Assembly (NCBI GenBank): GCA_021850625.1
Contig: JAJZLJ010000027.1
Span: 23,389 to 87,388 of the forward strand
Direction of reading: 5' to 3'
Length of the DNA stretch: 64,000 bases
DNA from: Candidatus Micrarchaeota archaeon
GTDB lineage: Archaea; Micrarchaeota; Micrarchaeia; Micrarchaeales; CABMGC01
Part shown: piece by piece, positions 1,917 to 63,851 of the stretch
Numbering within the stretch: the first letter of the stretch is position 1
Layout of the letters: each line of letters opens with the position of its first letter
Made by a program: the position numbers and the translations under genes
Notes under the pieces: model-generated
The model's database searches: none
Seen by the model: only the letters and a program-made list of their open reading frames with translations
What the model was told of the DNA's origin: nothing

Positions 1917-4121
1917 TTAATCCAATAAAAGTATATTTTCTTTACCTCCAAAAACATTAAAGTTTCTTGAATCCTTCTTTTTTTCTGCACATAAAAGTAA
2001 AGTTGCTCTTTTTTTATTTAGTATAGAGGTGGTTATTATGCATCCGGATTCGTCAGTTATACCTTTAAAAATCTCTTCGCCGCAATATGAAATAATTATT
2101 TTTTTGCCAACTAAAGCAATAAATTCCTTATCAAGAAGCCTAATTTTTGTTGTAGGATTTAATTCCATATCTAATACTTCATCGATATGCTCATAATTTT
2201 GAGATGGTATAAATCTATTTGTTTTTACAAAAACCGAACCCACAGGCTGACGTGAATCTATATTACTTTTTATAGGAGTAATGGCGCAGACACCTTGCTC
2301 AAGAATCTTTAATTTATTTATTACGCTATCAAATTGTTCTGAATTAAAAAGAAGATCATTTGCTGCATATTTTGAGGTATCGGGACTTTGTCTAAAATAA
2401 AGTTTAAATTGACACAATCGTCTTATCTCTATTTTTATATCTGAAACGCTATGAGTTATAAGGAATAATCCTACTCCTTTTTTCCTGAAATCTTGTATTC
2501 TATTTAATATATCAGATGATGCAGTAGAGTCTTCCTCACCAAAAATTAACTGCGCTTCCTCTATGCAAAGAAGCATGCGTAGTTCTTTATCTCCAGTAGT
2601 ATCAAAAAGTTCTGTATGCATGTATATCTGATTTAGTAATAATGCGTAATAGAAAGGTTTCATTGAATTGCTTACCATTGAAAGATCAAAGATTACTCCT
2701 TCTTTAAGAAGATTTTCCATATTAACTCCATCGGAATAAGCAAACTGGCTTTTTTGAAGCATTAGACGCATAGGCTCCAACGCGGCCAGTATATTCTCGC
2801 CATGTTTTGAAAATTTTACTCCGGTGTTGGAACGCTTACCATGCTTTTCTACAATCTTTTCGAATATTGAATCATATACATCTTCTGGTTCAGGGGTATA
2901 AGTTTTTGAGTATATATTGTTAAATGCACTTAGCAAACATTTTTCCATTGCATTTTTATAAGGTCCAGCGTTTGATGCAGAGGAAATAAGCATTGCCAGA
3001 TTTTCATAAAATGATTCTTTATTTACTCGCTTATCACAATTAAAAAAAGATAGTTTAGGAACTTTAGAATATAACTTTATTACTAACATATTTGTGTATT
3101 TTGCAAAAAGATTCCATTCATTTGTAGGAGAGATGATTACAGTATAAGGTCGCTTACCTTCAAGCACCTGTTTAAGAATAAACATTGATGATGAAGTTTT
3201 TCCAGTTCCAGGTACACCAGTTACAAGAGTACCAAGATTTAAAGCATTTTTAGGTATTTGTATTTTATTTTTTCCCTCAGAAACAGCATCCTCTAAATAA
3301 TTTCCTATTAAAATTTCTCCTTCAATTTCTGTAAAAAATGTTTTTATTAAAGGTTTAATATGAATTATATCTGAAAATATCAATGCTGTAGCTGCTCTTT
3401 TCTCCGAAAAAGGTATAGCATCATATTTTTTAGCTATTGAAAAAGGACTGTGATCTAAATTCAATGATAATACATACTCATCTTGAAACAAAATCTTTGA
3501 TTTTAAATAAGAGATAGTATCTGAATCTTCTTTTTCAGTAAAAATTGAGATCATGTAAGATCTTCCATTAGATAAAATAATTTCATTGAGCATATCAAGT
3601 ATGGATAGTAATGTTTTTCTCTCTTCGGAATTATAAAAAAGTTCAGATTGAACTGATTCACTTGTTCCGCTAGAAATATTTCTAGAAGAGCTCTGTCTGT
3701 TTACACGAATCTCCATTGAACTAAGTCTTTCCTCCAGTTTTTCCTTTACTTCTTTTGCATGAAGTATATTTGAAGGTATAAAAAAGATAAAAAAAGAACT
3801 ATTCTTATTTCTTAATACGGAGTATACCTCTTTGAACTTTTGCTCTGGTTGATGTTTTTCATCAAAAGTTATATCAAAATATGGCACTATACGCAAAAAT
3901 TGCTTGGACTTTATGGCAAAGGTGCTTTTTTTAAGCTCTATTCCTGGCATGGAATTTAAAAATTTTTCTATTGAATCATTTTCTTCTAGAATAAGATAAG
4001 TCTTAGAGGTAGCAAAATCATGATAAAATCCGAAGGGTTTACCAAGAGCAGCTTTTATAAATAAATAATAATCAAGTTTTTCTGGAATTGAACTTAATAA
4101 AAATATTTGTGCGTTATCCAT
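1917..4121 (-). CDS. Large soluble P-loop ATPase of the HerA/VirB4/FtsK class (last gene of the translocon-like operon)
   Basis: The ORF is 734 aa. Walker A is LVTGVPGTGKTSS, Walker B is RMLLCIEEAQLIF, and a downstream KKGVGLFLITHSVSDI block follows. No TM segment is visible. The N-terminal domain (about 290 aa) and C-terminal domain (about 100 aa) are unassigned. Confidence 0.6.
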   Translation of the reverse strand: MDNAQIFLLSSIPEKLDYYLFIKAALGKPFGFYHDFATSKTYLILEENDSIEKFLNSMPGIELKKSTFAIKSKQFLRIVPYFDITFDEKHQPEQKFKEVYSVLRNKNSSFFIFFIPSNILHAKEVKEKLEERLSSMEIRVNRQSSSRNISSGTSESVQSELFYNSEERKTLLSILDMLNEIILSNGRSYMISIFTEKEDSDTISYLKSKILFQDEYVLSLNLDHSPFSIAKKYDAIPFSEKRAATALIFSDIIHIKPLIKTFFTEIEGEILIGNYLEDAVSEGKNKIQIPKNALNLGTLVTGVPGTGKTSSSMFILKQVLEGKRPYTVIISPTNEWNLFAKYTNMLVIKLYSKVPKLSFFNCDKRVNKESFYENLAMLISSASNAGPYKNAMEKCLLSAFNNIYSKTYTPEPEDVYDSIFEKIVEKHGKRSNTGVKFSKHGENILAALEPMRLMLQKSQFAYSDGVNMENLLKEGVIFDLSMVSNSMKPFYYALLLNQIYMHTELFDTTGDKELRMLLCIEEAQLIFGEEDSTASSDILNRIQDFRKKGVGLFLITHSVSDIKIEIRRLCQFKLYFRQSPDTSKYAANDLLFNSEQFDSVINKLKILEQGVCAITPIKSNIDSRQPVGSVFVKTNRFIPSQNYEHIDEVLDMELNPTTKIRLLDKEFIALVGKKIIISYCGEEIFKGITDESGCIITTSILNKKRATLLLCAEKKKDSRNFNVFGGKENILLLD

Positions 4122-31978: not shown

Positions 31979-34900
31979 TTATACCTTTGGATTGTTAATG
32001 CTTTCTGTCATGCTTCCGCCATAAATAGAACCAGGAAGAGTAGCTATCACAGATACTGCAGCTTTTCCATGTGTAATATCATACATCGAATATTCATAAT
32101 TAGATTGTCCACCTTTACCGTATAAAAATTTACCGTCAGACGTTTCAGGCATAGGGAAAACGAAATAAGTTAAGTCGGCAGTGAACGGATTTAGAGAATA
32201 TGAAGTAAGAGTATTTGTTATTAAATCATAACCGGCACCCGTTTGCGCCACAGTATTTTGTTGGTTATATTTATTAAAAAAGCCATACGTACACTCCAGA
32301 TAGAGATATGTATCATTAGGAGAAAGTCCAGCCATATTACAACCCTCTTGTGGTGATGTACTATTTAAAAATGAAGGAAATGGAAGTTTTGTTACGACTG
32401 CATTGTTTAAAGATATTTTATATAGTTCGGATGGGTATAGAGCTGGCGGTGGCCCAGCAATAGCATAAGCATATCCTCCATTAGGATCTACAATAAATGC
32501 TGTTGGATTTATACTATCATTAAAAAGATTTAATTTTTGGAGTGAAGAAATTGAACCGCTCGGAGCTATTGTTATCTGATAATATCCAGACAAACCAGTG
32601 TTATTATTATCAGTATAAAGCGTAGCATCTTTTTGTAAAGCTGGTAATACGCTAAGGAGATCATTTTGAATATTCTCACAGGAACTAGAAGAATAATAGT
32701 GTTGTACACACATCCCACCATCAGAGCCATTTATTATTGTTGTTGCGTGAGCTACAGCATTATAGTATGTTTGTGCAGAGAAGTATCCAGGATAGAAATC
32801 TAAATATGCATATAGATATGTATTATTATTTGCACTTCCTGCAGAAATTAAACTATAAGATAGATTAGCAACAGGATTCATAATTCCAAAATTATTTTCT
32901 ACATATGACCATATAGAACTAGTTACATTGGTTAAAACATGTATAGTATTTAGATTTTTGCTTGATTCCAATATATAATATCCTGAAAAATTTTGTTCGA
33001 ATACATCTAGTGAAGGGGAATATGTAAAGATTGTTGAAAAAATATCGGATGAATTTGCTCGGTTATACCAAGCGCTGGAAAACGGATATTTTGGACTGTC
33101 ATTATTAGGATCTGCACTTTTTACGTATGCGAAGCCCGTAGATACAGTACTATTAAGAAGGTACCCTTTGAAAGAAGAAAAGGATATAGAATTCCATCCA
33201 ATAAAATATCCATTATTTTTATTAGAAAGAGTGGTAGCGCTTAGAGGATATATAACATGGTAGGCATAAGGGCTGTGTAATGAAGCAGTGTATATCGGCT
33301 CTGAATAAGTGAAATTTGGTCGGAGAAGATAATTTGCATTAATTCCCGATGTATTTATAGATGCAGGGAATACTGAAGTGCGTGAAGTGTTTTCTATTAA
33401 AGGAAAGAAGGTTCCGCTATAAGAATATTGCGATGAACCGGACAAAAATGAAATGCCCCAATTGAGAGATCCTTGACTTCCCTGAATTTTAGAGATTGTT
33501 ATAGGATAGTTATATGCTGTTTCGTAGACAGAATAATTATAAGAATCTGCCCATGGGCTGCTAAAAGAAAAAGAAGCATTATAATCTGGTCCTATAAAAT
33601 AAGAATTGGTAATGTTGCTGCATACGGGTATTGCTGCTGGTGGAGGGTGTATAGACATTGAAAAAAAGTCTAAAGAAGTTAAATTAACATAGCCTGATTC
33701 AGAATAAAGATATTTATTGTCTGGTGTTAAAGATAATTTTCCATATACTTTAAAGGAACTAGAATTAAGAGTTAGTTGTGTGACATTATCGGTTAAAAGA
33801 TTAGCACGAAATAAGGCTCCACTAGCATCGTCAGTATATGCATATGTTCCATTTCCTGTTATTGCTATTCCTGTAAGATTATATGAGGTTGGTACCTGAA
33901 TAATATTTGTTATTGTTTCAGATTGCGATGGTATAGTGCTGAAACCTACTAAAAAGTTAGACGCGGTTATATATGCGGAGTCATTATTCGGATATAACGC
34001 AATTGCTCCATTTGGCTGTTCATTTGCAACAGTTACTATGTTATAAACCGAGGGAGTAGCTCCAGTAAAGTTTACAATGTAAAGAGTTCCTGTTGAGTTA
34101 GCAGCAGTAGCGTTTGAACCTGAAAGTATATATAAATATTTTCCATATTTTTCATCTAGTGCAGCGTCGGCAACAAAACCTACTTTTCCGGCATTACTCT
34201 GATTTAATATTACATATGTATAATCACTGTTTTGAAGATTGTAATCGTTACCTGTTGAGATTACTGATTGTGCAACTTGAGGAGATATTGCAGACGCTAT
34301 TATAGTGCTCGGAATTTCAGAAGAAACTGGTCCAGTGAAATTTTCATAAATGACATACATAGTACCGCTATTTCCTATAGCGAGATATACGGGAATGTAT
34401 GAACTGACATCAAATAAAGAAGGTTTGTTTAATATTGTTCCGACAAGACCATAATTACTTTCATTGATTATAGAAATTCCTGTTGTTCCATTCTTTGCAT
34501 ATTGTAATGTATAGATATATCCATTATGTGACGCAGAGTACATACCAAGCAAGCCTTGTGAAGTCATAGCACTTTGTAAAGCTAAATATGAACTACTGAG
34601 ATAATAACCATCAAACACTGGTGAAGCATTAAAAGTAAAATTATAATCTGTAATCAATTGTTGTGATTGGGCAAAAGTTGGTATCATTGAATGCATTTCA
34701 TCATAAACATTTAATACGGCAGCTGGGGCATCTGTAAATGATGTGGTGGTAACGCTTGGAACATACATGTACGTATTATTTACTGTACACCACGGAGTAT
34801 ATGATAAAGGACCGGTGGTTGATGTTGAAAGAGAGGTTGATGTTGAGGTGGAGGAAGAACTAGAAAATATTGATGATGAGGATGAAGAAGAAGAGGAAAA

Positions 34901-35614
34901 AAATGTTGAGGAGGATGAAGAACTTGAAGATGAAGAAGAGGATGGGGAGGAAGATGAAGAGAAAAATGTTGAGGAGGATGAAGAACTTGAAGATGAAGAA
35001 GAGGATAATGAAGAAGGTGGACTGCCGCCGCTAGGACCAGGATTAGAGATTATTGGTGTTCCGCCAGGTGGTATATTAATTATGCCATCTTGCAAAAGTG
35101 TACTTACTGGATATGCATAACTTACTGAAGACCCAGTAGTTGAAAAGGAGTCTAAATTAGATGGATTATTGCAATTTGTCGAAAGGCATTCTTTATAATT
35201 TAAAAAAAACTGTGGTTCTAATTGTGTTCCTGTTTTAGGGATGTAACCAGTAATTATTGCAACACATGTTATAGTAGTTCCTTCAGATGCAGTTGAAGGA
35301 TTGCAGGAACCTATTGTGTATGATGAGGTAGGAGTAAGTTTTACCGAAAATTGCGATGAAGAGGTAAAAAATATTGGCTTTCCAAGATTATTTGTAAATG
35401 CAAGTATTACAGTTGAACCTAAAGAGTTTGTGCTGATTATAAGCTGATAACATTGAAATCCTGTAGAAATATAACAATATGAAGGACTATATGTTGTTGT
35501 AGGCGCGTTAAAAAAAACCATGTATAAAATAACCACTGCGGCTATGAGTATTATCAATGCCCAAGAATATGAAGTTAAATACTCAAATGCAGATTGAAGC
35601 TTTGATTCTTTCAT
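31979..35614 (-). CDS. 1211-aa surface protein with a class III (type IV pilin-like) signal peptide, a poly-Ser linker and beta-propeller-type repeats
   Basis: The N-terminus is MKESKLQSAFEYLTSYSWALIILIAAVVILYMVF (a Q..EYL pilin-type motif plus a hydrophobic helix). A Ser-rich tract of about 60 aa follows. It has recurring LY/YAY/YLY motifs that resemble YVTN repeats. Confidence 0.6.
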   Translation of the reverse strand: MKESKLQSAFEYLTSYSWALIILIAAVVILYMVFFNAPTTTYSPSYCYISTGFQCYQLIISTNSLGSTVILAFTNNLGKPIFFTSSSQFSVKLTPTSSYTIGSCNPSTASEGTTITCVAIITGYIPKTGTQLEPQFFLNYKECLSTNCNNPSNLDSFSTTGSSVSYAYPVSTLLQDGIINIPPGGTPIISNPGPSGGSPPSSLSSSSSSSSSSSSTFFSSSSSPSSSSSSSSSSSSTFFSSSSSSSSSIFSSSSSTSTSTSLSTSTTGPLSYTPWCTVNNTYMYVPSVTTTSFTDAPAAVLNVYDEMHSMIPTFAQSQQLITDYNFTFNASPVFDGYYLSSSYLALQSAMTSQGLLGMYSASHNGYIYTLQYAKNGTTGISIINESNYGLVGTILNKPSLFDVSSYIPVYLAIGNSGTMYVIYENFTGPVSSEIPSTIIASAISPQVAQSVISTGNDYNLQNSDYTYVILNQSNAGKVGFVADAALDEKYGKYLYILSGSNATAANSTGTLYIVNFTGATPSVYNIVTVANEQPNGAIALYPNNDSAYITASNFLVGFSTIPSQSETITNIIQVPTSYNLTGIAITGNGTYAYTDDASGALFRANLLTDNVTQLTLNSSSFKVYGKLSLTPDNKYLYSESGYVNLTSLDFFSMSIHPPPAAIPVCSNITNSYFIGPDYNASFSFSSPWADSYNYSVYETAYNYPITISKIQGSQGSLNWGISFLSGSSQYSYSGTFFPLIENTSRTSVFPASINTSGINANYLLRPNFTYSEPIYTASLHSPYAYHVIYPLSATTLSNKNNGYFIGWNSISFSSFKGYLLNSTVSTGFAYVKSADPNNDSPKYPFSSAWYNRANSSDIFSTIFTYSPSLDVFEQNFSGYYILESSKNLNTIHVLTNVTSSIWSYVENNFGIMNPVANLSYSLISAGSANNNTYLYAYLDFYPGYFSAQTYYNAVAHATTIINGSDGGMCVQHYYSSSSCENIQNDLLSVLPALQKDATLYTDNNNTGLSGYYQITIAPSGSISSLQKLNLFNDSINPTAFIVDPNGGYAYAIAGPPPALYPSELYKISLNNAVVTKLPFPSFLNSTSPQEGCNMAGLSPNDTYLYLECTYGFFNKYNQQNTVAQTGAGYDLITNTLTSYSLNPFTADLTYFVFPMPETSDGKFLYGKGGQSNYEYSMYDITHGKAAVSVIATLPGSIYGGSMTESINNPKV
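34899..35006. repeat. Tandem duplication inside the poly-Ser coding tract
   Basis: An identical 45-mer (aaaaatgttgaggaggatgaagaacttgaagatgaagaagaggat) occurs at 34899-34943 and 34962-35006, giving a 63-nt period. Confidence 0.85.
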
Positions 35615-37066: not shown

Positions 37067-38425
37067 TTAACCAGAACATTCTAAAAATAGGTTACTAGCC
37101 TCTAACTGTAATAAATTGCAAGAAGTAGTTATGCCAGATAAAGGATTTATACCAGTATTAGTAGTTGTTATGGTTGCTTGACCAGCTGCGTTTATTGTTG
37201 ATACTAAATTACTAGTGCTTTCTGCAGTAACTCCGAAGGTCCAATAAGAAGGAAAATTCACCATATTTTCATTACCATTACTATCATATTTTAAACCCAG
37301 TTGTGCATTGAAACTACTAAAAGCAGTTATTTGAGAATAAGTAGCTCCGCCAATCTCAAGTTCTGCAGAATATGGAAAATTTAGGCTAGATGGTACTATT
37401 TCAGATGGTAGTTCTGGTGAAATAACAATAGCTGCATTAGTAGAACCCGGAGGAAGAAGAACCGTGTCGTATATAACATCTTTTTGATTATTAAGATTAT
37501 TACAGTTGTTTCCTAACAAAAGGCAGTCTACAGGATCAATATTTCCATTTTTGTTTATTGCATATTGAAAAATTATCCCAGTTGTTGCGCTACTCCCAGT
37601 ACCTATAGAATCTATCTTTATTCCTAAAACACCATTAAAAGGCAGGTTATAATAGGCAGGTTGGAGACATTTATAATAGAACATTACACCATCATAAGAA
37701 CCTAAATTACCATTATCACCTGAAAAAATTCCTGTTACGGGATTAAGGTTAATATTTGCAGTATTAGAATCAGTATTCCATATATTATTACAAACGAAAA
37801 ACTTATTAGTGGTTGTAGAAAAAGTTACTGTATTTTGAAGCCAGTAAGAATGTGGATTCCCACCATAATCAAAAACTAATCGAGCATTAAGTTGCATACC
37901 TGAATCCCAATAAGGATTTGAGATTACATTGCCTTGTGCCGTTTCTACAGAACTTACTTGCATTGAGGTTATATCAAAATTACCATTAACCTGATCGGTA
38001 TTAATAATATAGCCAACCGGATTATTATTAATAATATTATTTATGCCAAAACTGGATATACCGACCGATATTACATTTTTATTAAACAGACCAGATAAAA
38101 AATAAAAGGCATTTTCTATAGGACCAGTGTAAGATGTTGGAGTGCTGAAAGGTGTTGGAATGTTAAAATTTGTGATGCTGCTATTGTTTGTATTTTTAAT
38201 TAATGAAGTGTTTGTTTTGTTTAATACTGAATAATTAGGCGTATTTTTCACAGGAGTATTGTTGAAAGTATTAGTAGTGTTAGTAAAAATAAAGTTATGA
38301 GAAAAAGTTATTTGTTGTGAAGATGAAATTGCTAGTGCAATTATAAATAAACTTATGACAAAAATAGAGAAGAATATTACCGGAATTCGTAATGTTATTA
38401 ACATCGATTTTAAGTTAGTCGCCAT
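37067..38425 (-). CDS. Secreted protein, tentatively thermopsin-like (peptidase A5 family)
   Basis: A signal anchor is followed by GISSFGINN...MQLNARLVF...HSYWLQNTVTF...NNIWN. This resembles my recollection of thermopsin-family signatures. Confidence 0.4.
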   Translation of the reverse strand: MATNLKSMLITLRIPVIFFSIFVISLFIIALAISSSQQITFSHNFIFTNTTNTFNNTPVKNTPNYSVLNKTNTSLIKNTNNSSITNFNIPTPFSTPTSYTGPIENAFYFLSGLFNKNVISVGISSFGINNIINNNPVGYIINTDQVNGNFDITSMQVSSVETAQGNVISNPYWDSGMQLNARLVFDYGGNPHSYWLQNTVTFSTTTNKFFVCNNIWNTDSNTANINLNPVTGIFSGDNGNLGSYDGVMFYYKCLQPAYYNLPFNGVLGIKIDSIGTGSSATTGIIFQYAINKNGNIDPVDCLLLGNNCNNLNNQKDVIYDTVLLPPGSTNAAIVISPELPSEIVPSSLNFPYSAELEIGGATYSQITAFSSFNAQLGLKYDSNGNENMVNFPSYWTFGVTAESTSNLVSTINAAGQATITTTNTGINPLSGITTSCNLLQLEASNLFLECSG

Positions 38426-42135: not shown

Positions 42136-44268
42136 TTACTTCTCGGTATCCTGCAATAATTTTATAGTGTCGTTTTTTAAGGTTTCCAAAGAAGTAGAGT
42201 TATTTTTATTGCTATGGAGAGAAATTGTTGTAAAGTAAACACCATAAGGTCCAAAAACATTAACGACTGAATTACCGGATAATGTTTGATTATTTGATAT
42301 GGTATAGGCATAATCAGTATTAAGTGCACCAAAACTGGTTATTTGATGTGTCAGATAATATCTTGTAGTAGAACTGTAATAGGAATTAGCAACGTTAGAG
42401 TTGTTCATAGTATTTATAATTACAGAGACATTATATCCCAAATTAGAGGTATAATTCTCCATTACAGCATTTATTATTCCATTATTTGTTTTACTTATGT
42501 TTGTTTGAGAAAGTGAATTCCATGCTCCTCCGAATAATCCTTCAAGCTCCTGTGTTGTCGGATATACTGGCTTGTTGGTTTTGTTAATAATCATTGAGGA
42601 AGTAATATTTTTGTATACATATTCTAAAACAGATTTTAATGGTATTTGATAAGAATATAATGCATTTGTATTATTAGAACTTGAATTTTTGGACAACGAA
42701 AGCTCTATTAGATAATTACCTACCGGACTTATATATCCAAGGAAATTTTTAGATGCTAATGTAATAGTAGTTACGCTTAAATTTGAGTATGCAGAGCCAT
42801 TGTAAAGTGCTCCTACACTTATATTTAGAGGATTTGCTCCAAACAATACGTTTGCGCCGACATTATATGAGTTGCTTGTTGCTGTGAAATTATCTTGCTT
42901 TGCTATCTCCAAAACTAAACTTTGATTTTGTGAATTACTGAAATTTTCGATTATAATCCACTTTGAAGTAAGAGGTATATTATAGGTTAAATTATAAGTA
43001 TTTAAAAATTTCCAGTTATTTCCCAATGTAGTATTTAAAGTGTTTGTGGTTAAGAATAATTGCTTGTTTAGATTTACAGGAGGTTTTGTCAAATTGTAAA
43101 GTTTAGATTGATTTGCAAGCGTTGTGGTGCTGTTAAGTGTAAGTGATTGTGCGTTTTCCATATTATTTAAAAGATTTATTAAGCCTGGAGATACTATATT
43201 TTGATTAATTAAAGTATTGCTATTGAGAGATATTTTTTCTTCTAAAATATAATTTCCAAATACGCTTTCTGCCAATATTATTGGCTTGTTATTATTTCCG
43301 TATAATTTACCACTAGCAAGTAAAACAATATGGCCATTTGAAAGTACACCGTTGATGACGTTAATTCCTGTTATAGTCGTAAGAGAATTTAATGCATTAT
43401 TGAATGTATTTGTAGCATTTATTGGAGATTTGAATAACTCTGAGATAAAGGATAATGAATAATTTGATGGGCCGGTGAAATTTTCTATATTTATGGCAGT
43501 GTTATTTATTATATTCGAAGATGAAGAAGAGGAATTGGCTATTGTCCAATTTCCACCGAATATATTTTTTACCTTATTAATAGTAATATGTGATGGAGTA
43601 AGTGTTGTAAGATTTTTTGGCATGTATTCCATATTGTTTAACATTTCTATAAGTTTAGACTTTGAGGTTTTTAATGAGGTAGAGGAAGAACTAGCCGAGT
43701 ATAACTGAAGACTTATTATATATTTGGAGTACTGGCCTAGTCCCAAGGTCAATGTTTCAGGAGTTGTAGAACCTATAGTTCCACCGAAAATTCCATAAGC
43801 ATACTGCGAATTAGATGCACCAAATGAAGCAGAAATGTTTGGTGTTAATCTTATAGAAGACATCTCTGAATCGAAGGTATTGCTTGAATTTTCAGTATTA
43901 TTGAATGAAACTATAAATACTGCAAGGTTATAGCCCGTTTTATTAGTAAAATTGTAAATAGTAACTTTATTAATCCCATTCGAAAAATTAGAGGAGGCTA
44001 TATTTTGATTTAAAAATGACCAATTGCCGCCAAGAAGATTGTCTAGATATGATGTGCCCAATATTGTTATGTTGGTGCCTTCTATAGTAGTATTTTTAAA
44101 GTTATAATTTCCTGCGTTGTAATTAACTGTTGTAAACAAAGAGTTTGACAATACAGAGGTGGGGGAGGAATTTTGAGTTGTATTTGGAGGGTATATAATT
44201 AATATTCCAGCTACAATGATGCCAATTATTATTATTCCAATTAACAGTATAATTTTATTAGATAACAT
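42136..44268 (-). CDS. 710-aa N-anchored, Asn-rich surface protein built of four modules of about 170 aa
   Basis: An N-terminal TM segment is followed by four recurrences of GG(N/A)W...N...I(I/M)ENFT/ENYT...N(Y)(S/N)L. N-x-S/T sequons are very dense. Confidence 0.55.
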   Translation of the reverse strand: MLSNKIILLIGIIIIGIIVAGILIIYPPNTTQNSSPTSVLSNSLFTTVNYNAGNYNFKNTTIEGTNITILGTSYLDNLLGGNWSFLNQNIASSNFSNGINKVTIYNFTNKTGYNLAVFIVSFNNTENSSNTFDSEMSSIRLTPNISASFGASNSQYAYGIFGGTIGSTTPETLTLGLGQYSKYIISLQLYSASSSSTSLKTSKSKLIEMLNNMEYMPKNLTTLTPSHITINKVKNIFGGNWTIANSSSSSSNIINNTAINIENFTGPSNYSLSFISELFKSPINATNTFNNALNSLTTITGINVINGVLSNGHIVLLASGKLYGNNNKPIILAESVFGNYILEEKISLNSNTLINQNIVSPGLINLLNNMENAQSLTLNSTTTLANQSKLYNLTKPPVNLNKQLFLTTNTLNTTLGNNWKFLNTYNLTYNIPLTSKWIIIENFSNSQNQSLVLEIAKQDNFTATSNSYNVGANVLFGANPLNISVGALYNGSAYSNLSVTTITLASKNFLGYISPVGNYLIELSLSKNSSSNNTNALYSYQIPLKSVLEYVYKNITSSMIINKTNKPVYPTTQELEGLFGGAWNSLSQTNISKTNNGIINAVMENYTSNLGYNVSVIINTMNNSNVANSYYSSTTRYYLTHQITSFGALNTDYAYTISNNQTLSGNSVVNVFGPYGVYFTTISLHSNKNNSTSLETLKNDTIKLLQDTEK

Positions 44269-49522: not shown

Positions 49523-51361
49523 TTATACAAGATATATTGCCCATGCAGCAATTATAAAGAAGCCAACAATAATAAATGGCACTGTCTTCTTTCCGGTTTT
49601 TATTACATCTCTACTTACCTTCATTATTGCATCTTCCGATCCTTTGCCCCATACTCTGAAGTTCTTTAATTTTATTTTAGAATAATAGTAAGTTACCTGC
49701 TCCATATCTTTCTTTGCGGCATCTATTGAGTTATCAAGAAACGGAATCAACTCGTTTATAGTTGTAAATCTTCCAAGAACATTGCTCGCTGAAAGTGCAA
49801 GTGTATTAACGGCATGTGTATCGGTAGTATAAATCTCTGCATCAAATCCATATTTTTTATTTATATGCGAGATAAGCTCGGTGCGCAGGCTTGGCATGAT
49901 ATTATTTGAATCGAAGTAAACCATACAGAAATTGGTATTTTTTATTTTGAAGATACCTATACTCATATATCCTGGGCCTATGTCATTTTTATGTATCTGG
50001 TTTTTAAGTAGAAGGCATGATGAACCAAAAAGAAGCTTGTCTTGAGCCTTGCTTGTTAACGATTCAAGAACCTTGTTTATTGAATTTGAATACATATTCA
50101 CATATTTGCTTCCTTTATAGATACCCTTTAGTTCATCTTTTTCTGCAGACTCAAAACGTGAGTTGTGTGCATCAATTAGAATACTTTCTAAACCATATTT
50201 TTTGGAGATTGATTCGAAGCTTGAGCCTATGTCATTATCTATATCCTCAGTTACAAGAGGCGCCTTGGTAAGACTTAGTAGTGATAAATTATCGATACGT
50301 ATACCTATCGCTTTACAGCCATTTGTTGAAAAGCTTGAAAAACTAGCAGCACAATGCTTAAATGAGTTAAGATTTTTTGATGGAATTGCTTTTTCTACAA
50401 CCCTCCATATTTCTGATATTTGAGAAGAGCTTACTGGATTGTCCTCAAGGTTTACAGCGCCGTGTAATATAAATGGAGCTGCATTATATTGCTTTACTAT
50501 TTTCTTCCCGAGATGCTCAGTAGTTATGCTTCCACCTATTCCGTTTATAGGGCCATAGTGTATCTCGGGCTTTACAAAAACCGCTTTAATTTGAGTTTTG
50601 CCTTTAAGTGCAAGTATAGAGATAGGCAACTCTCTTTTTATTCCCATGCCACTTAATGCATTATTGTCTTTTTTGATGTTATAAAGCCATTGATTTATCA
50701 TTACGGTCATTAACTCTACACCGCTAAAATTAAATTGTTTTTTTGATGGTCTATCCATTATATAAAGTATTGAATAACCACACAACATAAATGCAAACAT
50801 CCCTATCCATAATTTTATAAGCACATAGTCATATGAGATATTGACAGCAAATAAGGAGTAACTTACAGGTATGAATATCAAGGCATTAAGTAGAGGTTGT
50901 ATTGCTGCAGTAATTATCTGTCCTTTTCTTTGATTGAGTATTATTCTGTTGATTATAAACCAATAACCGTATATTCCGGCATCACTGAGCAGCATTGGCA
51001 AATACGCAATAGCATAACTTCCAGTTAATTTATAAGTAAAGATGCTTATTAAGAAAAAAGCAGCGTAAGTGAATGTTATTACTATAACTACTATTAAAGC
51101 ATGTTTTAACTTAAAATTTCTTTTAATAACTTTTAATAGCAATGCAGTGAGTATGGCTGGAAAAGTAATTACCGTGACGCCTATACTAGATCCGTATATT
51201 AGTAAATAAACCAAGGACAATCCAGTAGATAGTATAAACTCTGCCAGTATTCCAGATATTATCCCAAATAATAAAAGAATAAGAATAAGTACATTCTCGC
51301 TAGGGAGCTTCATTCCAAAGTACTTGGTAAATTTAGTAACATCTCTTTTTTCATCAGGCAT
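49523..51361 (-). CDS. Large archaeal membrane protein (DUF2070-like architecture)
   Basis: The 612-aa ORF has an N-terminal half with about 7 TM segments, a soluble C-terminal half and a final TM segment. The family assignment is from memory only. Confidence 0.35.
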   Translation of the reverse strand: MPDEKRDVTKFTKYFGMKLPSENVLILILLLFGIISGILAEFILSTGLSLVYLLIYGSSIGVTVITFPAILTALLLKVIKRNFKLKHALIVVIVITFTYAAFFLISIFTYKLTGSYAIAYLPMLLSDAGIYGYWFIINRIILNQRKGQIITAAIQPLLNALIFIPVSYSLFAVNISYDYVLIKLWIGMFAFMLCGYSILYIMDRPSKKQFNFSGVELMTVMINQWLYNIKKDNNALSGMGIKRELPISILALKGKTQIKAVFVKPEIHYGPINGIGGSITTEHLGKKIVKQYNAAPFILHGAVNLEDNPVSSSQISEIWRVVEKAIPSKNLNSFKHCAASFSSFSTNGCKAIGIRIDNLSLLSLTKAPLVTEDIDNDIGSSFESISKKYGLESILIDAHNSRFESAEKDELKGIYKGSKYVNMYSNSINKVLESLTSKAQDKLLFGSSCLLLKNQIHKNDIGPGYMSIGIFKIKNTNFCMVYFDSNNIMPSLRTELISHINKKYGFDAEIYTTDTHAVNTLALSASNVLGRFTTINELIPFLDNSIDAAKKDMEQVTYYYSKIKLKNFRVWGKGSEDAIMKVSRDVIKTGKKTVPFIIVGFFIIAAWAIYLV

Positions 51362-59425: not shown

Positions 59426-59469
59426 ATAAAGTAATAATAATGAATAGAGTATACTATATGTTTAACTTT

Positions 59470-59544
59470 GGGCATGTGGCGTAACTTAGATAGCTCATCT
59501 TGCTTCGGACCAGAGGGTTACTGATTCAAATCCCGTCATGCTCG
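59470..59544 (+). tRNA. tRNA-like element (degenerate or atypical tRNA-Arg UCG?)
   Basis: The acceptor (GGGCAUG/CAUGCUC) and T loop (UUCAAAU) are good, and the anticodon loop is CUUCGGA. Several features are atypical: the D arm lacks GG and a regular stem, there are 2 extra nt at the position-26 junction, the anticodon stem has one mismatch and the T stem has two. Confidence 0.35.
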
Positions 59545-59656
59545 CTATTATAAAATAATATTTGTAAAAATATAGATTCTACATTTAGGAAAAAATTAAC
59601 TTCTAAAGTACCTCAAATTTAATTTAGGAAAAATAAATAACCTCAAAAATACTAAA

Positions 59657-61096
59657 TTATATACAGCAACTTGTATCTTTGATATTTCTAAAGAAAGACT
59701 GAGCAACTATTTTTAATGACTCTGACATAGTTGGGAATACGTGTACTGTATCTATTACGTCCTCTATTGTATATTTATTTTTTAATATCATTACGGCCTC
59801 ATTTATAATTTCTGCTGCCATTGGAGAAAGTATCTGCACACCAAGAATAATATGGGTTTTGGGATGTGCAACCATCTTTATCATACCTCTTGTATTGCCC
59901 ATTATAATAGCTTTCGGCACATCTGTAAATTTAATCACTCTACACGTACAAACATTAAACTTTTCAATTACCTCTTTTTCTGTTATGCCAACACTTGCAA
60001 ACTGAGGATCCGTAAATATAGCTTTTGGTATAATATCCTTATTTATTTTTTTATGGAAGCCCAAAAGTGCATTCTCTGCGGCATATGTGCCCTCCCTAGC
60101 TGCTAAAGATTCTAGCATAGGCTCTCCAGTTACATCACCTGCAGCAAATATATTTGGATTATTTGTTTTCATTTCAGAATTAGTTATTATCTCTCCCTTA
60201 GCGCCAAGTTTAATTTTAGCATTTTCGATATTTAATGAATTTGTATTTGGAGTTCTTCCTGTAGCAAATAGAATTGATGTTGCTTGAAACACAGTGGGTT
60301 TACCATTAACCTCAGCATTTACAATAACTTGATTGTTTTTAGCATTTTTTTCAAAGCTTTTAAGGGCAACATTTGTATGTATTATTATCCCATCTTCTTC
60401 TAGATAAGATTTAAGAGCATTTGACATTTCCGGTTCAGCTTCTGGGATAAGTAATGGATTTCTTTGTAAAAGAGTTATTTTAGTTCCAAATCTATTATAG
60501 ATCTGTGCAAATTCTAAACCCAGAGCACGACCACCAATAACTATAAGTGATTCTGGAATCTCTTTTTGCTCAAGTCCTTCTATATTTGTCCAGTAGTTTA
60601 TATCTTCTACTCCTTGTATTTTAGGTATTGATGGGCTAGCGCCAGTTGCAATAATAAATTTTTTACCTAAAATAACAGTTTTACTTTTATTATTATGTTT
60701 AACTTTTATCTCTTTTTCAGAGATAAAGCTAGCCATTCCCTCATACAACTCTACGTTTTTCAGCTTGCTTAAAACATTTTCATATTTTTCATACCTTAGA
60801 TTTTCTACAAGCTTCTTTTTATGCTCCATTATCTTAGAGAAATTGAATTTTTCGTCATGTTGCACTACAGTATTTTTTCCTAAATTATGATTTCTTGTAT
60901 TTCTTATAATTTCTCCGCTAACAAGAAGCCTTTTACTTGGAACACAGCCAACATTAACACATGTTCCGCCTATAGTACCTCCTTTTATTATAGCGGTTTT
61001 CTTACCGAGTTCATCTGCCGTTATAGCTGCAGCAAAAGCTGCTGCTCCATTACCTAATATAACCAATTCATATTCTGTATTTTTTCTTTTTGGCAT
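59657..61096 (-). CDS. merA: Mercuric reductase (MerA core, no NmerA domain)
   Basis: It has the class I pyridine-nucleotide disulfide oxidoreductase fold with GGTCVNVGCVPSK. The C-terminus ends in the MerA-type vicinal Cys pair (KDTSCCI). Confidence 0.7.
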   Translation of the reverse strand: MPKRKNTEYELVILGNGAAAFAAAITADELGKKTAIIKGGTIGGTCVNVGCVPSKRLLVSGEIIRNTRNHNLGKNTVVQHDEKFNFSKIMEHKKKLVENLRYEKYENVLSKLKNVELYEGMASFISEKEIKVKHNNKSKTVILGKKFIIATGASPSIPKIQGVEDINYWTNIEGLEQKEIPESLIVIGGRALGLEFAQIYNRFGTKITLLQRNPLLIPEAEPEMSNALKSYLEEDGIIIHTNVALKSFEKNAKNNQVIVNAEVNGKPTVFQATSILFATGRTPNTNSLNIENAKIKLGAKGEIITNSEMKTNNPNIFAAGDVTGEPMLESLAAREGTYAAENALLGFHKKINKDIIPKAIFTDPQFASVGITEKEVIEKFNVCTCRVIKFTDVPKAIIMGNTRGMIKMVAHPKTHIILGVQILSPMAAEIINEAVMILKNKYTIEDVIDTVHVFPTMSESLKIVAQSFFRNIKDTSCCI

Positions 61097-61202
61097 TATA
61101 TCAACATTTACATAATATTATTTAAGTAATTTTAAACTGTCTTTAGATTAAAATCAATTTTTCAAATTTTTCATAAATTCCAATAATAGTATGTGACAGA
61201 AA

Positions 61203-61212
61203 TATATATAAA
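61203..61212 (+). promoter_or_regulatory. TATA-like box upstream of the arsR-type gene
   Basis: TATATATAAA lies 24-33 nt upstream of the ATG at 61236. Confidence 0.3.
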
Positions 61213-61216
61213 TCTT

Positions 61217-61238
61217 CATATGTAAATATTAACATATG
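61217..61238. promoter_or_regulatory. Inverted repeat overlapping the regulator start codon (candidate operator)
   Basis: CATATGT-AAATATTA-ACATATG has perfect 7-bp arms. The right arm contains the ATG. Confidence 0.3.
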
Positions 61239-61580
61239 AACAGTTCAGATAATGTGCTTGTTTTCAAGGCACTTGCAAACTCCGTGAGACTTAAAATTAT
61301 CGATACATTATTAGATGGACCGAAAAATGTCGAATCAATTTGTATTAAAGTAGGTGAAACACAATCAAGAGTATCGCATGAGCTTTTCTGTTTGAGAAAC
61401 TGCGGTTTTGTAAAACCGAATAGGAATGGAAAGATGATAATATACGAATTAAATAAGGCTTCTGTCATACCACTTTTAGACGCTGCAGAAAAACATTCGT
61501 TGATATTTTGCAAAGAGTTAAAGAATTGCAACATTCTTTCAGAGATAAAGGAAAATGTTCAAAGCATTTATAATAAATAA
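61236..61580 (+). CDS. ArsR/SmtB-family metalloregulator
   Basis: The wHTH is FKALANSVRLKIIDTLLDGPKNVESICIKVGETQSRVSHELFCLRNCGFV. It has Cys residues at CLRNC and two further Cys residues (CKELKNC) near the C-terminus. Confidence 0.75.
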   Translation: MNSSDNVLVFKALANSVRLKIIDTLLDGPKNVESICIKVGETQSRVSHELFCLRNCGFVKPNRNGKMIIYELNKASVIPLLDAAEKHSLIFCKELKNCNILSEIKENVQSIYNK

Positions 61581-61589
61581 GGCAATTAT

Positions 61590-62312
61590 ATGTCGAGTAA
61601 ATGTAAATTTTGTAATAAAAAAATGGAGTCAGATTCCGGACTTCTAATGCATTTTAATGAAAAGCATAAATCAGAAAAAGGTAATTTAAATATCAATGAA
61701 ATAAAGAAATCCAGCATAAGTTCACGAACCTTGTTAATAATAATAAGTATTATGGCATGTTGTGGTGTTCCTCTTATAATAATAACCTTGAGCAGTATTG
61801 GTATTTTTGGTTTCTTGGGATCACAAACAACCGGTTTTCAATCAACATATAAAATAACAAATGTTACGGTAGGTGAAGTAGCTCCCAACATTCCTATAAC
61901 ACTAACAAATGGTACTAGTATAACTCTTGATAACCTTAGAGGGCGTCCGGTAGTGTTGTGGTTTATAACTACGTGGTGCCCATCATGTCAAGATAGTGAA
62001 AGTATTTTAGCGTATGATGGATACCTCAAGCAGTTATATGCAAAGGGAGCAGTTCTTGTAACTGTAGAACTTTATAACGATTTAGGTAATAATGGGCCAT
62101 CTATCTCTAATTTTGCATCTCAATATGGTGGAAACTTAGTACAGAACAAAAGTTGGCTGTTATATGGAACATCAAGTCTCAATGCAACCTATTCATATGA
62201 TCCAAAGGAGTACTTAGAAATATACTATGTAATAAACTCTAATGGAATTATAACAAACACTTCATACACCGGACTTGTAAATAACATAAATAGTGTTTTA
62301 CAAGAAGTATAG
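61590..62312 (+). CDS. C2H2 zinc finger, vicinal-Cys TM helix and thioredoxin-like (CxxC) ectodomain protein
   Basis: The zinc finger is CKFCNKKMESDSGLLMHFNEKH. The TM helix is IISIMACCGVPLIII. The TlpA/ResA-like motif is RGRPVVLWFITTWCPSCQ. Confidence 0.55.
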   Translation: MSSKCKFCNKKMESDSGLLMHFNEKHKSEKGNLNINEIKKSSISSRTLLIIISIMACCGVPLIIITLSSIGIFGFLGSQTTGFQSTYKITNVTVGEVAPNIPITLTNGTSITLDNLRGRPVVLWFITTWCPSCQDSESILAYDGYLKQLYAKGAVLVTVELYNDLGNNGPSISNFASQYGGNLVQNKSWLLYGTSSLNATYSYDPKEYLEIYYVINSNGIITNTSYTGLVNNINSVLQEV

Positions 62313-62354
62313 ATACATTAATTTGAATATTTTTAGCTTAAAAAATTTGATATT

Positions 62355-62867
62355 ATGTCTTTATTGAAATATGAACGTATTGTAATGCAGACATTACTTA
62401 AAAATAGACATTATACTTTCCTGTTAGTTGTATTATCGGCAATATTTACTGTAATTTACCTTGTTCTTCTTCCATCCCTTCCAAATGGAACTATAAATCC
62501 AATATTTATAGAATTTATTACACCACTACAAATAATCTTCTCATTTGTATTTGGAATTATGATAAGTATAATGATAACAATTAATTTATACGCTAGAAAA
62601 TTAAAAATACACACATCAAAAAGCGGGACTGTTGCAGGAGTACTTGTTGGTACATTAGTTAACGCTTTATGCTGTACTCCGATAATACCGTCTATTTTAG
62701 CAGTTTTAGGTGCATCTACACCTGTTTTATTTGCATATTCGCCACATATACAGGCTTTCTTCGAACAACGCTATCCTTACTTTTATCTTCTATCTTTTTT
62801 TATTTTCCTTGCTGCTTTCCATTATACCGCTAAAAATATCTCCTGTTGTAAAAAGGTTAAAACATGA
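62355..62867 (+). CDS. Four-TM membrane protein with two vicinal Cys pairs (candidate metal-ion transporter)
   Basis: One CC pair lies in a TM helix (LVNALCCTPIIPSILAVLG). A second CC pair lies in the C-terminal tail (NISCCKKVKT). Confidence 0.5.
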   Translation: MSLLKYERIVMQTLLKNRHYTFLLVVLSAIFTVIYLVLLPSLPNGTINPIFIEFITPLQIIFSFVFGIMISIMITINLYARKLKIHTSKSGTVAGVLVGTLVNALCCTPIIPSILAVLGASTPVLFAYSPHIQAFFEQRYPYFYLLSFFIFLAAFHYTAKNISCCKKVKT

Positions 62868-63399
62868 AGAAAATGTTGCTATTTTTGTAGCTATTCTTAT
62901 AATACTCGCATTTGTATTATTTGACAAAACAACGCTTCAGATACATCAGAATAATCTAGGGACTAATATTGGCCAAGTTGCACCTAATATACCTATAAAA
63001 CTAGTAAATGGCACCAATGTTACTTTAAACGAATTTCGTGGTAGACCTGTGGTTCTTTGGTTTATAACAACCGGATGTTCATCTTGTTCACAGAGTTCAC
63101 AATTATTAAAATCACAGTATTATAATCAGATACATTCCAAAGGTGCCGTCATACTTACAGTAAATCTTTATGATAATTTAGGGACTGATGGTTTTTCTTT
63201 GAAATTTTTTGCTAATAGTTATGGTTATGGTTTAAACAAAACAGGTTGGATATATGGGACAACGACTCAGAATGCAAGCTACGAGTATGATCCAAATGCA
63301 TATTTAGATATCTATTATGTTATAAATTCAAATGGAACCATAATCAATGAAGGTAGTCCGTTATCAACTAATCTTAATAGTGTAGTTTCTTCGTTATAG
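62710..63399 (+). CDS. Membrane-anchored thioredoxin-like protein (paralogue of the 61590 ectodomain); start uncertain
   Basis: RGRPVVLWFITTGCSSCSQ is present, and the ectodomain aligns with the 61590 product over its whole length. The only ATG (62710) overlaps the upstream gene by 158 nt. TTG 62809 is an alternative start. Confidence 0.5.
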   Translation: MHLHLFYLHIRHIYRLSSNNAILTFIFYLFLFSLLLSIIPLKISPVVKRLKHEENVAIFVAILIILAFVLFDKTTLQIHQNNLGTNIGQVAPNIPIKLVNGTNVTLNEFRGRPVVLWFITTGCSSCSQSSQLLKSQYYNQIHSKGAVILTVNLYDNLGTDGFSLKFFANSYGYGLNKTGWIYGTTTQNASYEYDPNAYLDIYYVINSNGTIINEGSPLSTNLNSVVSSL

Positions 63400-63714
63400 T
63401 TACTTTCTATAAATTTTTTATTAAGTATGGATTAAATGAAGTCTGATTAAAATAAGTAGACGGTAAGTTATTTTGATTTTTTAAATAAATCTTCAAGCTC
63501 TGTCGCTATTTTAAATATGTGCTTTCCTTTTTTGTTGTCTTATAGCCTATTATTCTCTTAACCTAGATTCACAGAGGTTGGTTTATTATGGACTAATATT
63601 AAAAGTACATAACAAGGAATAATTAATATTTGTTCATATCTAAAATTTAGTTGGGCGTTTTGGAGTATTAGTGGGGTGCAAAATGTCCGTCCTATATACA
63701 ACCAGTTAAAAACT

Positions 63715-63787
63715 TGGGGAGTCCGAGATTTGAACTCGGGTCGTCAGGTCCCAAACCTGAAAGCCTACCAAGCTAGCCTAACTCCCC
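63715..63787 (-). tRNA. tRNA-Pro (UGG)
   Basis: The acceptor is GGGGAGU/ACUCCCC. The anticodon arm is UCAGG-UUUGGGA-CCUGA and the T arm is CCGAG-UUCAAAU-CUCGG. The D stem has two G-U pairs. Confidence 0.85.
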
Positions 63788-63851
63788 GAAATAAAAAAAT
63801 AAATAATAAATAAACAAATAAAAACCAAAAAACAAATATAAATAAAATAAA

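Follow-up and report, generated by a model that had tools for sequence, protein, structure and literature searches.

A mercuric reductase locus of a Micrarchaeota archaeon with a probable mer accessory module of a four-helix membrane protein and two anchored redoxins

A stretch of 64,000 nucleotides (nt) from a Candidatus Micrarchaeota archaeon (GenBank assembly GCA_021850625.1, contig JAJZLJ010000027.1, positions 23,389 to 87,388), referred to here as the window, was analysed for a mercury-resistance-like locus that a preliminary description had proposed from the letters alone. The five open reading frames (ORFs) claimed for this locus were present. They are five linked genes: merA, a divergent arsR, and three genes for membrane proteins, here called P3, P4 and P5. 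Related loci from other assemblies are given L numbers. The features of the locus, with the basis of each assignment in brackets, are as follows.

59657-61096, minus strand: merA, core mercuric reductase of 479 amino acids (TIGR02053, alignment with 4YWO)
61097-61133, minus strand: merA promoter region (TATA-like TTAAATAA and operator-like 18-mer TATGTAAATGTTGATATA)
61200-61238, plus strand: promoter of the arsR operon (B recognition element/TATA AAATATATATAAAT and palindromic operator CATATGTAAATATTAACATATG, which overlaps the arsR ATG)
61236-61580, plus strand: arsR, ArsR/SmtB metalloregulator of 114 amino acids (NF033788)
61590-62312, plus strand: P3, partner of the W type, 240 amino acids (AhpC-TSA and Redoxin domains, WCPSC)
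61602-61667, plus strand: predicted cytoplasmic C2H2 finger of P3, residues 5-26, C5-x2-C8-x12-H21-x4-H26 (sequence)
61758-61763, plus strand: C57C58 of P3, within the predicted signal-anchor transmembrane (TM) helix 47-65 (hydropathy and lysine plus arginine counts)
61974-61988, plus strand: WCPSC of P3, W129-C133, in a predicted extracytoplasmic TlpA/ResA-like thioredoxin fold (Pfam)
62355-62867, plus strand: P4, four-TM protein of 170 amino acids (hydropathy, AlphaFold2 model)
62670-62675, plus strand: C106C107 in TM3 of P4, motif NALCCTPIIP (invariant Cys pair)
62844-62849, plus strand: C164C165 in the basic cytoplasmic C-terminal tail of P4 (sequence, topology)
62809-63399, plus strand: P5, partner of the G type, signal-anchored thioredoxin fold (start uncertain, candidates TTG 62809 and GTG 62710)
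63073-63087, plus strand: GCSSC motif of P5 (redoxin domain)

The merA product scored 559.9 bits with the MerA equivalog TIGR02053 (cut-off 454.45), and its top match in the PDB was MerA of Metallosphaera sedula (4YWO; E value of 7e-110, end-to-end alignment). The CVNVGC redox disulfide, the archaeal Phe in HVFPT and the C-terminal SCCI were in register with 4YWO; an NmerA domain was absent. In a published MerA survey the redox-active CxxxxC, the C-terminal vicinal Cys pair and Tyr/Phe at position 605 were used for recognition (PMC8261052), and in the window protein these positions are taken by CVNVGC, SCCI and the Phe of HVFPT. The earlier reading of this gene as a core MerA with CVNVGC and a C-terminal SCCI was thereby borne out, and a grouping with non-MerA disulfide reductases was not found. 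By these matches the oxidoreductase is a bona fide MerA, for which reduction of Hg(II) is predicted. Altered merA genes were seen in two related loci: in L004 (3394-4638) merA looks damaged and lies in two out-of-frame pieces, and in L008 (3445-4684) residues 282-479 of MerA alone are left, fused straight to P3 from residue 22, with arsR deleted.

The arsR product was matched by NF033788 (69 bits, cut-off 55) and by Pfam HTH_5 (37.5 bits, cut-off 22). CmtR (Rv1994c) was its second-best family. Residues 9-75 were aligned with residues 14-80 of CmtR (2JSC), and the two share a CxxxC in the alpha4 region and a C-terminal Cys: C52-x3-C56, in the recognition-helix region, falls on CmtR residues 57 and 61 in equal-length matches (offset 5), and C98, near the C-terminus, lands near CmtR residue 102. 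These CmtR residues (57/61/102) are taken here to be its Cd/Pb site of the alpha4C type. All three cysteines were invariant in 30 of 30 module-linked ArsR proteins from archaea and bacteria. The window protein differs from CmtR in its score with the CmtR equivalog NF047906 (46.4 bits, far under the cut-off of 150) and in that mer genes are regulated here; Hg(II) is therefore expected as the effector.

Upstream of merA, the ATG is preceded at a distance of about 26 nt by the TATA-like TTAAATAA, and the operator-like 18-mer TATGTAAATGTTGATATA (61097-61114) directly abuts the start codon, which suggests that the merA mRNA is leaderless. On the other side of the spacer, a palindrome with 7-bp arms had been noticed over the arsR ATG; it was located exactly at 61217-61238 (CATATGTAAATATTAACATATG, CATATGT-N8-ACATATG, 22 nt). 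By itself, a palindrome with arms of 7 bp is not above chance (116 inverted pairs per 4.6 kb of AT-rich DNA). About 40 nt that include it were near-identical in L004 and L009, with the rest of the spacer diverged and unalignable. The 18-mer TATGTAAATNTTNAYATA was matched exactly at two window sites only, 61097-61114 (minus strand) and 61219-61236. Both sites abut start codons (merA and arsR, respectively), and each is preceded by a TATA-like box that stands some 26 nt before the ATG. An inverted repeat (I1) pairs the 18-mer of the merA promoter with the arsR promoter. These exact matches hold by construction, because the pattern was derived from those two sites; independent support for the operator is given by the phylogenetic footprint in L004 and L009 and not by the matching of TATGTAAATNTTNAYATA copies. 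The promoter layout is consistent with leaderless transcripts of the archaeal kind and with repression through a block of pre-initiation complex assembly. For S. solfataricus, repression by an ArsR-type MerR is given as established in work cited in PMC3466566. As a side observation, an ORF of 359-371 amino acids with an N-terminal TM helix was found between merA and arsR in L005 (3748-4827, minus strand) and L006 (2166-3281, minus strand), which are metagenome-assembled genomes (MAGs) labelled Micrarchaeota/Marsarchaeota.

P3 and P5 were both recognised by Pfam. P3 scored 34.4 bits with AhpC-TSA (cut-off 26) and 32.2 bits with Redoxin (cut-off 26.6), and P5 scored 33.8 and 28.1 bits with the same models. 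Scores with equivalog families stayed under the cut-offs: 35-43 bits for ResA (170), 22-25 bits for StoA (210) and 18-20 bits for DsbE (123-359). From hydropathy and charge counts, the basic N-termini of both proteins are predicted to lie inside and the thioredoxin folds outside. The elements described earlier for P3, namely the C2H2 finger, the TM helix with a Cys pair and the thioredoxin fold with WCPSC, were all present. One or two cytoplasmic C2H2-type fingers were also found in many archaeal partners. The idea that the P3 zinc finger replaces NmerA was set aside as speculation only, since no clean correlation was seen (core-MerA loci are often finger-less). In the L010 partner, a CxxC stands at the anchor-helix position of the CC of P3.

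For P5, the redoxin domain with GCSSC stood as described, and the proposed start at 62710 became doubtful. Both candidate starts (62809, chosen by the gene caller, and 62710) overlap P4. The conserved ancestral start codon, ATG 62864, overlaps the P4 stop as ATGA and is kept in the window (ATGAAGAAAATGT). A 10-nt deletion, evident from comparison with L010, has put it out of frame. The L010 homologue of P5 begins MKKMWILF, and window 62864-62890 reads MKKMLLFL followed by a stop. Missing through the deletion is the part of L010 that holds a TM CxxC (FGACGVC). The frame of the thioredoxin domain remains open upstream of 62864. The deletion is regarded as real and not as a sequencing error, because it is common to three independent Illumina assemblies. 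The G-type partner has decayed to fragments in L005, L006 and L007.

P5 had been described as a second thioredoxin-like paralogue. Bacterial W-type partners were closer to P3 in 52 of 54 cases, and bacterial G-type partners (GC(A/S)SC) were closer to P5 in 34 of 36. These orthology scores contradict a local duplication: P5 is orthologous to the conserved G-type partners, a recent local duplication of P3 was ruled out, and the window therefore has the complete ancestral trio. Redoxin partners of altered build were observed in the following places.

L025, 2463-3905: redoxin partner of a Marsarchaeota locus with a long C-terminal extension and a second FCPYC motif
L037, 1407-2165: DUF929 protein that replaces the redoxin partner
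L036, 668-1648: redoxin partner with DUF3105 fused C-terminally, a fusion also seen in haloarchaea
L100, 4626-5951: altered redoxin partner

The four TM helices of P4, its NALCCTP within a helix and its C-terminal ISCC tail were confirmed as earlier described, with the topology predicted. Hydropathy and lysine plus arginine counts place both termini inside and C106C107 in the middle of TM3, and the helices of an AlphaFold2 (AF2) model of the window protein (predicted local distance difference test, pLDDT, of 85) agree. No family was found for P4 or for sets of 24 and 78 relatives in Pfam and NCBIfam scans. A PDB sequence search with the P4 profiles A1 and A2 gave nothing relevant, and Foldseek searches of the PDB with two AF2 models (pLDDT 73 and 85) gave no match at an E value of 0.001 or lower. 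By word-indexed search, 31 clusters were recovered, all named 'hypothetical', with invariant LLPSLP, FITPxQ and NxLCCTP and a near-invariant ISCC tail. Exhaustive profile searching extended the superfamily to 181 representatives at 50% identity, for which the database names are uniformly 'hypothetical protein'. Among 78 full-length members, with 18-48% identity to the window protein, the sole invariant columns were the Cys-Cys of TM3, in the motif LP(S/N)xLCC(T/S)PxxPxLL. Members of the family are few and come mostly from acidic habitats rich in metals.

For genomic context, about 100 loci were gathered and scored by scripts based on ORF calls (which over-extend N-termini in loci of high G+C content), BLAST and hidden Markov models (HMMs); 62 loci were informative and non-redundant. 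P4 abuts a redoxin-type ORF in essentially all loci with flanking sequence, usually with 4-nt gene overlaps, and bacterial loci mostly have two partners, one of the WCxxC and one of the GC(A/S)SC type. A true MerA with a C-terminal CC was found within 6 kb of P4 in 45 of the 62 loci, a count in which linkage is underestimated through the 6-kb flank limit and the loci are not phylogenetically independent. MerA-linked loci occurred in archaea (Micrarchaeota, Thaumarchaeota, Thermoprotei, haloarchaea) and in bacteria (Actinomycetota, Dormibacterota, Sulfobacillus, Chloroflexi, Proteobacteria), usually in the gene order arsR-merA-P4-trx or merA-trx-P4. The module stands in operons with merA under metal sensors of the ArsR or MerR type, sometimes together with merB. 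The co-occurrence with merA that had been proposed as a check in other archaea was found in both domains.

Plasmids gave clear cases of this arrangement. On plasmids of Acidiphilium multivorum (pACMV1) and Acidithiobacillus ferrooxidans, a MerR-family gene is divergent from merA, a gene annotated 'redoxin' and one annotated 'hypothetical' (P4). On a Halobacterium zhouii plasmid, merB and merA are divergent from arsR, a small ORF, a finger-redoxin protein (two C2H2 fingers, TM helix, thioredoxin domain with WCPSC, DUF3105) and P4. Between the MerR-family gene and merA of pACMV1 an unannotated Cys-rich ORF of 170 amino acids was also noticed (L098, 3181-3693; it begins MAACC and contains LPCAVTCALGLCALGLC); it had no match in Pfam or NCBIfam and may be a further mer membrane component.

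A cytoplasmic C-terminal Cys pair of P4 (CC, CxC, or CLxxDGC in Actinomycetota) was present in 60 of the 62 loci. The two P4 variants without it were also without MerA; this trend was not significant (Fisher p=0.07), and a rule that the tail pair occurs only where MerA is near was not adopted.

P4 was compared with known mercury and redox carriers, for which the sequences of Tn501 MerT and of MerF were checked against databases before use. In hhalign, the superfamily profile matched the MerT profile with 80.5% probability (E 1.3e-5, 79 columns). P4 87-170 was aligned with MerT 6-84, the CC of TM3 falling on C24C25, TM4 on MerT TM2 and the tail Cys on C76/C82. In a re-run (78.6%) the real score was 34.1, against 11.5 +/- 2.1 (maximum 20.2) for 200 column shuffles, none of which attained it, and 22.3 for a reversed profile. 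A local match of 28-34 residues joined P4 95-122 to MerF 11-38 (MerF TM1). At the level of single models, Pfam MerT (PF02411) matched 3 of the 78 members weakly (E of 0.0047 or higher) and did not match P4 itself at E<=10; no P4 match to MerE was found in Pfam or NCBIfam, none to MerF by HMM, and none of significance to MerC in NCBIfam or Pfam, where the only family member to appear was P0079 (E 0.17). MerH of Mycobacterium marinum pMM23, which has its CC in TM1 and a weak resemblance to MerC, was tried as a relative and proved unrelated (hhalign probability 0.5%).

Gene fusions and neighbours point the same way as the MerT profile. A MerF-like two-helix unit (LCCxGP) is fused to the N-terminus of P4 in family members P0066, P0075 and P0162; P0084, P0169 and P0175 have N-terminal cytoplasmic extensions with an additional vicinal pair, SCC(A/G)P. 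MerF-like ORFs lie immediately upstream of P4 in several actinobacterial loci, and two gammaproteobacterial loci contain a true MerF or a MerT-like gene. The parallel to MerF and MerT drawn in the preliminary description was strengthened by the hhalign match, by the MerF-P4 fusions and by the near-universal cytoplasmic C-terminal Cys pairs. Because of the profile match, the match to MerF TM1 and the fusions, P4 is regarded here as a functional counterpart of the MerT/MerF core, and perhaps as a remote member of its superfamily; it is not filed as a MerT. Neither the MerT sequence profile nor the HMA motif (GMTCxxC) matched any ORF of the 64-kb window, in line with the earlier failure to recognise MerT or MerP. 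The claim that the module stands in place of merT and merP holds for the window and for archaeal loci; certain bacteria have the module together with MerF/MerT or in fusion with it.

Taken together, these data make it probable, with moderate confidence, that the window holds a mercury-resistance locus built on an undescribed mer accessory module through which Hg(II) would be relayed to MerA by thiol exchange. The alternative thiol-relay route first suggested for these genes is supported at the level of sequence and synteny, and Hg transport itself, the single transfer steps, metal specificity and repression are predicted from the same data. Without Hg(II), the CmtR-like ArsR repressor would occupy near-identical operators, each between TATA box and start codon, at two divergent leaderless promoters, one for merA and the other for arsR-P3-P4-P5. 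Binding of Hg(II) to the thiolates of C52, C56 and C98 would free the repressor from these operators. P3 (WCPSC) and P5 (GCSSC), anchored on the outer face of the membrane, would catch Hg(II) on their CxxC dithiols in the manner of MerP and hand it by ligand exchange to the vicinal Cys pair in TM3 of P4. Within the MerT/MerF-like C-terminal two-helix unit of P4, Hg(II) would proceed to the cytoplasmic tail Cys pair, from there to the C-terminal Cys pair of core MerA and on to the active site, to leave as volatile Hg(0). In the Micrarchaeota clade, the anchor-helix CC of P3 and its cytoplasmic CxxC finger may join the relay; the C2H2-type fingers of archaeal partners could, as a speculation, be extra stations or docking elements.

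A wider proposal is offered tentatively. P4 and its W- and G-type thioredoxin-fold partners might form a third architecture for Hg(II) entry, a transmembrane 'thiol wire', which would be the arm for transport that has long been missing from archaeal mer operons, and an ancient element in common with acidophilic bacteria. With the same reserve, the archaeal single-pass partners might each carry a series of stations along such a wire: a CxxC outside, a CC in the middle of the membrane (Micrarchaeota) and, for the absent NmerA, a finger CxxC in the cytoplasm.

Several observations weigh against a relay of Hg(II) to MerA. The TM Cys pair of P3, although present in the window protein as described, is specific to the Micrarchaeota clade and is not a family feature, and the start of P5 is damaged in this strain. 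The similarity to MerT is modest and vanishes when the actinobacterial subgroup profile alone (A3) is used, and composition bias easily affects comparisons between TM helices. MerA was lacking within 6 kb in 17 of the 62 informative loci. A module variant in L032/L033 (1409-6178) has neither MerA nor the P4 tail Cys; its gene order is a membrane thioredoxin (TM_HPP and Thioredoxin domains), a thioredoxin-reductase-like protein of 330 amino acids, a small zf-C2H2 protein, a redoxin, P4 and a CMD/PA26 protein. Because MerF or MerT accompanies the module in some bacteria, the module need not be the transporter itself. The classical role of TlpA/ResA-type redoxins is that of reductases supplied by an electron carrier in the membrane, not that of metal chaperones.

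Part of this evidence would suit the main rival, a transmembrane relay of reductant, which is considered rather unlikely. P4 would then be a CcdA/DsbD-like carrier whose Cys pairs pass reducing equivalents from the cytoplasm to the external redoxins, with thioredoxin or the C-terminal dithiol of MerA as a possible donor. The redoxins would in turn maintain surface thiols in the reduced state or remove Hg from them, so that the cell surface would be defended under Hg stress with no import of Hg(II). The obligate partners are TlpA/ResA-like redoxins, and a helix-Cys membrane protein paired with an anchored thioredoxin fold follows the logic of CcdA-ResA. The L032/L033 subfamily, whose neighbours are a membrane thioredoxin, a CMD protein and a thioredoxin-reductase-like gene, may represent a form of the module with redox functions alone, and a role in redox relay is therefore conceivable; the loci without nearby MerA and the bacteria that have the module alongside real MerF/MerT fit as well. 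On the other hand, no similarity of P4 to DsbD/CcdA, DsbB or VKOR was found in Pfam or by PDB fold (DsbD_2 matched 1 of 78 members at E 0.045). The cysteines of DsbD-type proteins are separated on different helices, and vicinal pairs in helix and tail are a hallmark of Hg(II) carriers. The MerF-like fusions, the regulation by metal sensors and the tight linkage to MerA also speak for Hg(II). Both kinds of relay are compatible with each other, because a dithiol that binds Hg outside the cell has to be maintained in the reduced state.

It is improbable that the module is meant for a different thiophilic metal (for instance Cd, Pb, Cu(I) or As(III)) or for broad soft-metal stress, with merA merely co-located in resistance islands. 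The Cys triad of ArsR matches that of the Cd/Pb sensor CmtR, one locus lies beside a Cu P-type ATPase, and plasmid loci lie near ars and RND genes; against this, the module usually shares an operon with MerA, in which genes often overlap by 4 nt, MerA acts specifically on Hg(II), merB adjoins on the Halobacterium plasmid, and the proteobacterial versions stand with merA under a MerR-like regulator. A chance position of generic Dsb or cytochrome-maturation housekeeping genes beside merA, to which the weak ResA/DsbE-like matches of P3 and P5 might point, is very improbable and strongly disfavoured given ResA and DsbE scores all far under the cut-offs, synteny with MerA that recurs over two domains and on mobile plasmids, a rare family confined largely to metal-rich acidic habitats, operons under metal sensors, and an operator common to the arsR-P3-P4-P5 operon and merA.

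The surroundings of the mer locus were examined in the window, which has a G+C content of 30-35% and comes from the DPANN lineage Micrarchaeota. Its threonyl-tRNA synthetase showed 80-83% identity, only to MAGs of Candidatus Micrarchaeota, and the nearest kin of the mer locus were Micrarchaeota bins from metagenomes of the acid-mine type. The same contig is present in a public assembly (L002; 100% identity over 11.5 kb). A cassette segment, window 59429-63842, was also found in L001 (7076-11488) and L003 (1186-5597) with 97-98.5% nucleotide identity. It begins just ahead of a tRNA-Arg and extends beyond a convergent tRNA-Pro, and 63842 is the end point of all three metagenome contigs. In L001 and L003 the cassette stands in a second genomic context, with a left flank that holds DNA polymerase B and others, unlike the GDH and ankyrin genes on the left of the window cassette. 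The tRNA-Arg copy is as follows.

59470-59544, plus strand: decayed copy of tRNA-Arg(TCG) (Rfam tRNA model, 28.8 bits against a gathering score of 29)

This copy has mismatches in the anticodon stem and the T stem and was not called by ARAGORN; tRNA-Arg(TCG) is intact in L001 (7119-7194) and L003 (1229-1304). No att-like direct repeat or integrase was found at the cassette, so that a tRNA-integrated element is no more than a possibility. MerA of L003 and L001 was 92.9% and 97.7% identical to the window protein, respectively; ArsR, P3, P4 and P5 of both were 100% identical to the window proteins. The mosaic suggests recombination within the cassette, since MerA has diverged while the other four proteins are identical.

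Elsewhere in the window, six large ORFs (452-1211 amino acids) had no NCBIfam match at E<=1e-10, which is typical of DPANN genomes.

1917-4121: large ORF without NCBIfam match
21600-24482: large ORF without NCBIfam match
31979-35614: large ORF without NCBIfam match
37067-38425: large ORF without NCBIfam match
42136-44268: large ORF without NCBIfam match
49523-51361: large ORF without NCBIfam match

The system belongs to a known kind, that of the mer systems; what is new in it is an uptake or accessory module, and it is not categorically new. A module of merA, redoxin and membrane protein was not found described in the full-text literature, a search whose coverage leaves out subscription journals. 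Archaeal mer operons have been reported without known transporters, apart from merP of Ferroplasma (PMC3466566), and mer surveys scored named genes only (PMC8261052). P4, a conserved membrane protein without a database name, and its one or two anchored redoxins are companions of MerA in lineages that range from DPANN archaea to Actinomycetota, as well as on conjugative plasmids of acidophiles. If Hg(II) reaches MerA through this module, the transport gap of archaeal and of many acid-mine mer systems would be filled, a new pairing of folds (thioredoxin fold and MerT-like core) would join the thiol-relay paradigm for Hg, and three new mer gene families would be available to annotators. If the module relays reductant instead, P4 would represent a new class of transmembrane thiol-disulfide carrier. 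Cultured hosts of the module are Acidiphilium multivorum AIU301, Acidithiobacillus ferrooxidans YQ-N3, Sulfobacillus thermotolerans Kr1, Conexibacter and Halobacterium zhouii.

Among known systems, MerT/MerP of Tn501 and Tn21 offers the same set: a CxxC protein outside, vicinal cysteines within a membrane helix, and a second Cys pair on the cytoplasmic side from which MerA is supplied. It is likewise encoded with merA in an operon under a metal sensor. MerT has three TM helices with the CC in TM1, whereas P4 has four with the CC in TM3 and is missed by the Pfam and NCBIfam models of MerT. MerP has a ferredoxin-like HMA fold; the partner in the module is an anchored TlpA/ResA-like thioredoxin fold, of which there are usually two (W and G type). 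With the two-TM MerF (PDB 2M67/2LJ2), P4 shares a TM helix with LCCxxP and a basic C-terminal tail that contains a vicinal CC, but it is twice as large, has two extra N-terminal helices with LLPSLP and FITPxQ, and has an obligate redoxin partner. MerH and MerC are, like P4, small multi-TM Cys-containing proteins beside merA and carry Hg(II); MerH has 171 amino acids, about the size of P4, and no detectable similarity to it. CcdA/DsbD with ResA/TlpA/CcmG likewise comprises a polytopic helix-Cys protein encoded beside an anchored TlpA/ResA-like CxxC protein, and differs in having one Cys in each of two helices, no vicinal pairs and no link to merA or metal sensors.

The mer locus of Saccharolobus solfataricus consists of an ArsR-type MerR, a TRASH-domain protein and MerA (PMC3466566). 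This Sulfolobus locus and that of the window have in common an archaeal core MerA under an ArsR-family repressor with a promoter-proximal operator, and a small Cys-rich cytoplasmic module. They differ in that membrane and redoxin components are lacking in Sulfolobus and a TRASH protein is lacking in the window locus, where the Cys-rich cytoplasmic element is a C2H2-type finger fused to a redoxin anchor.

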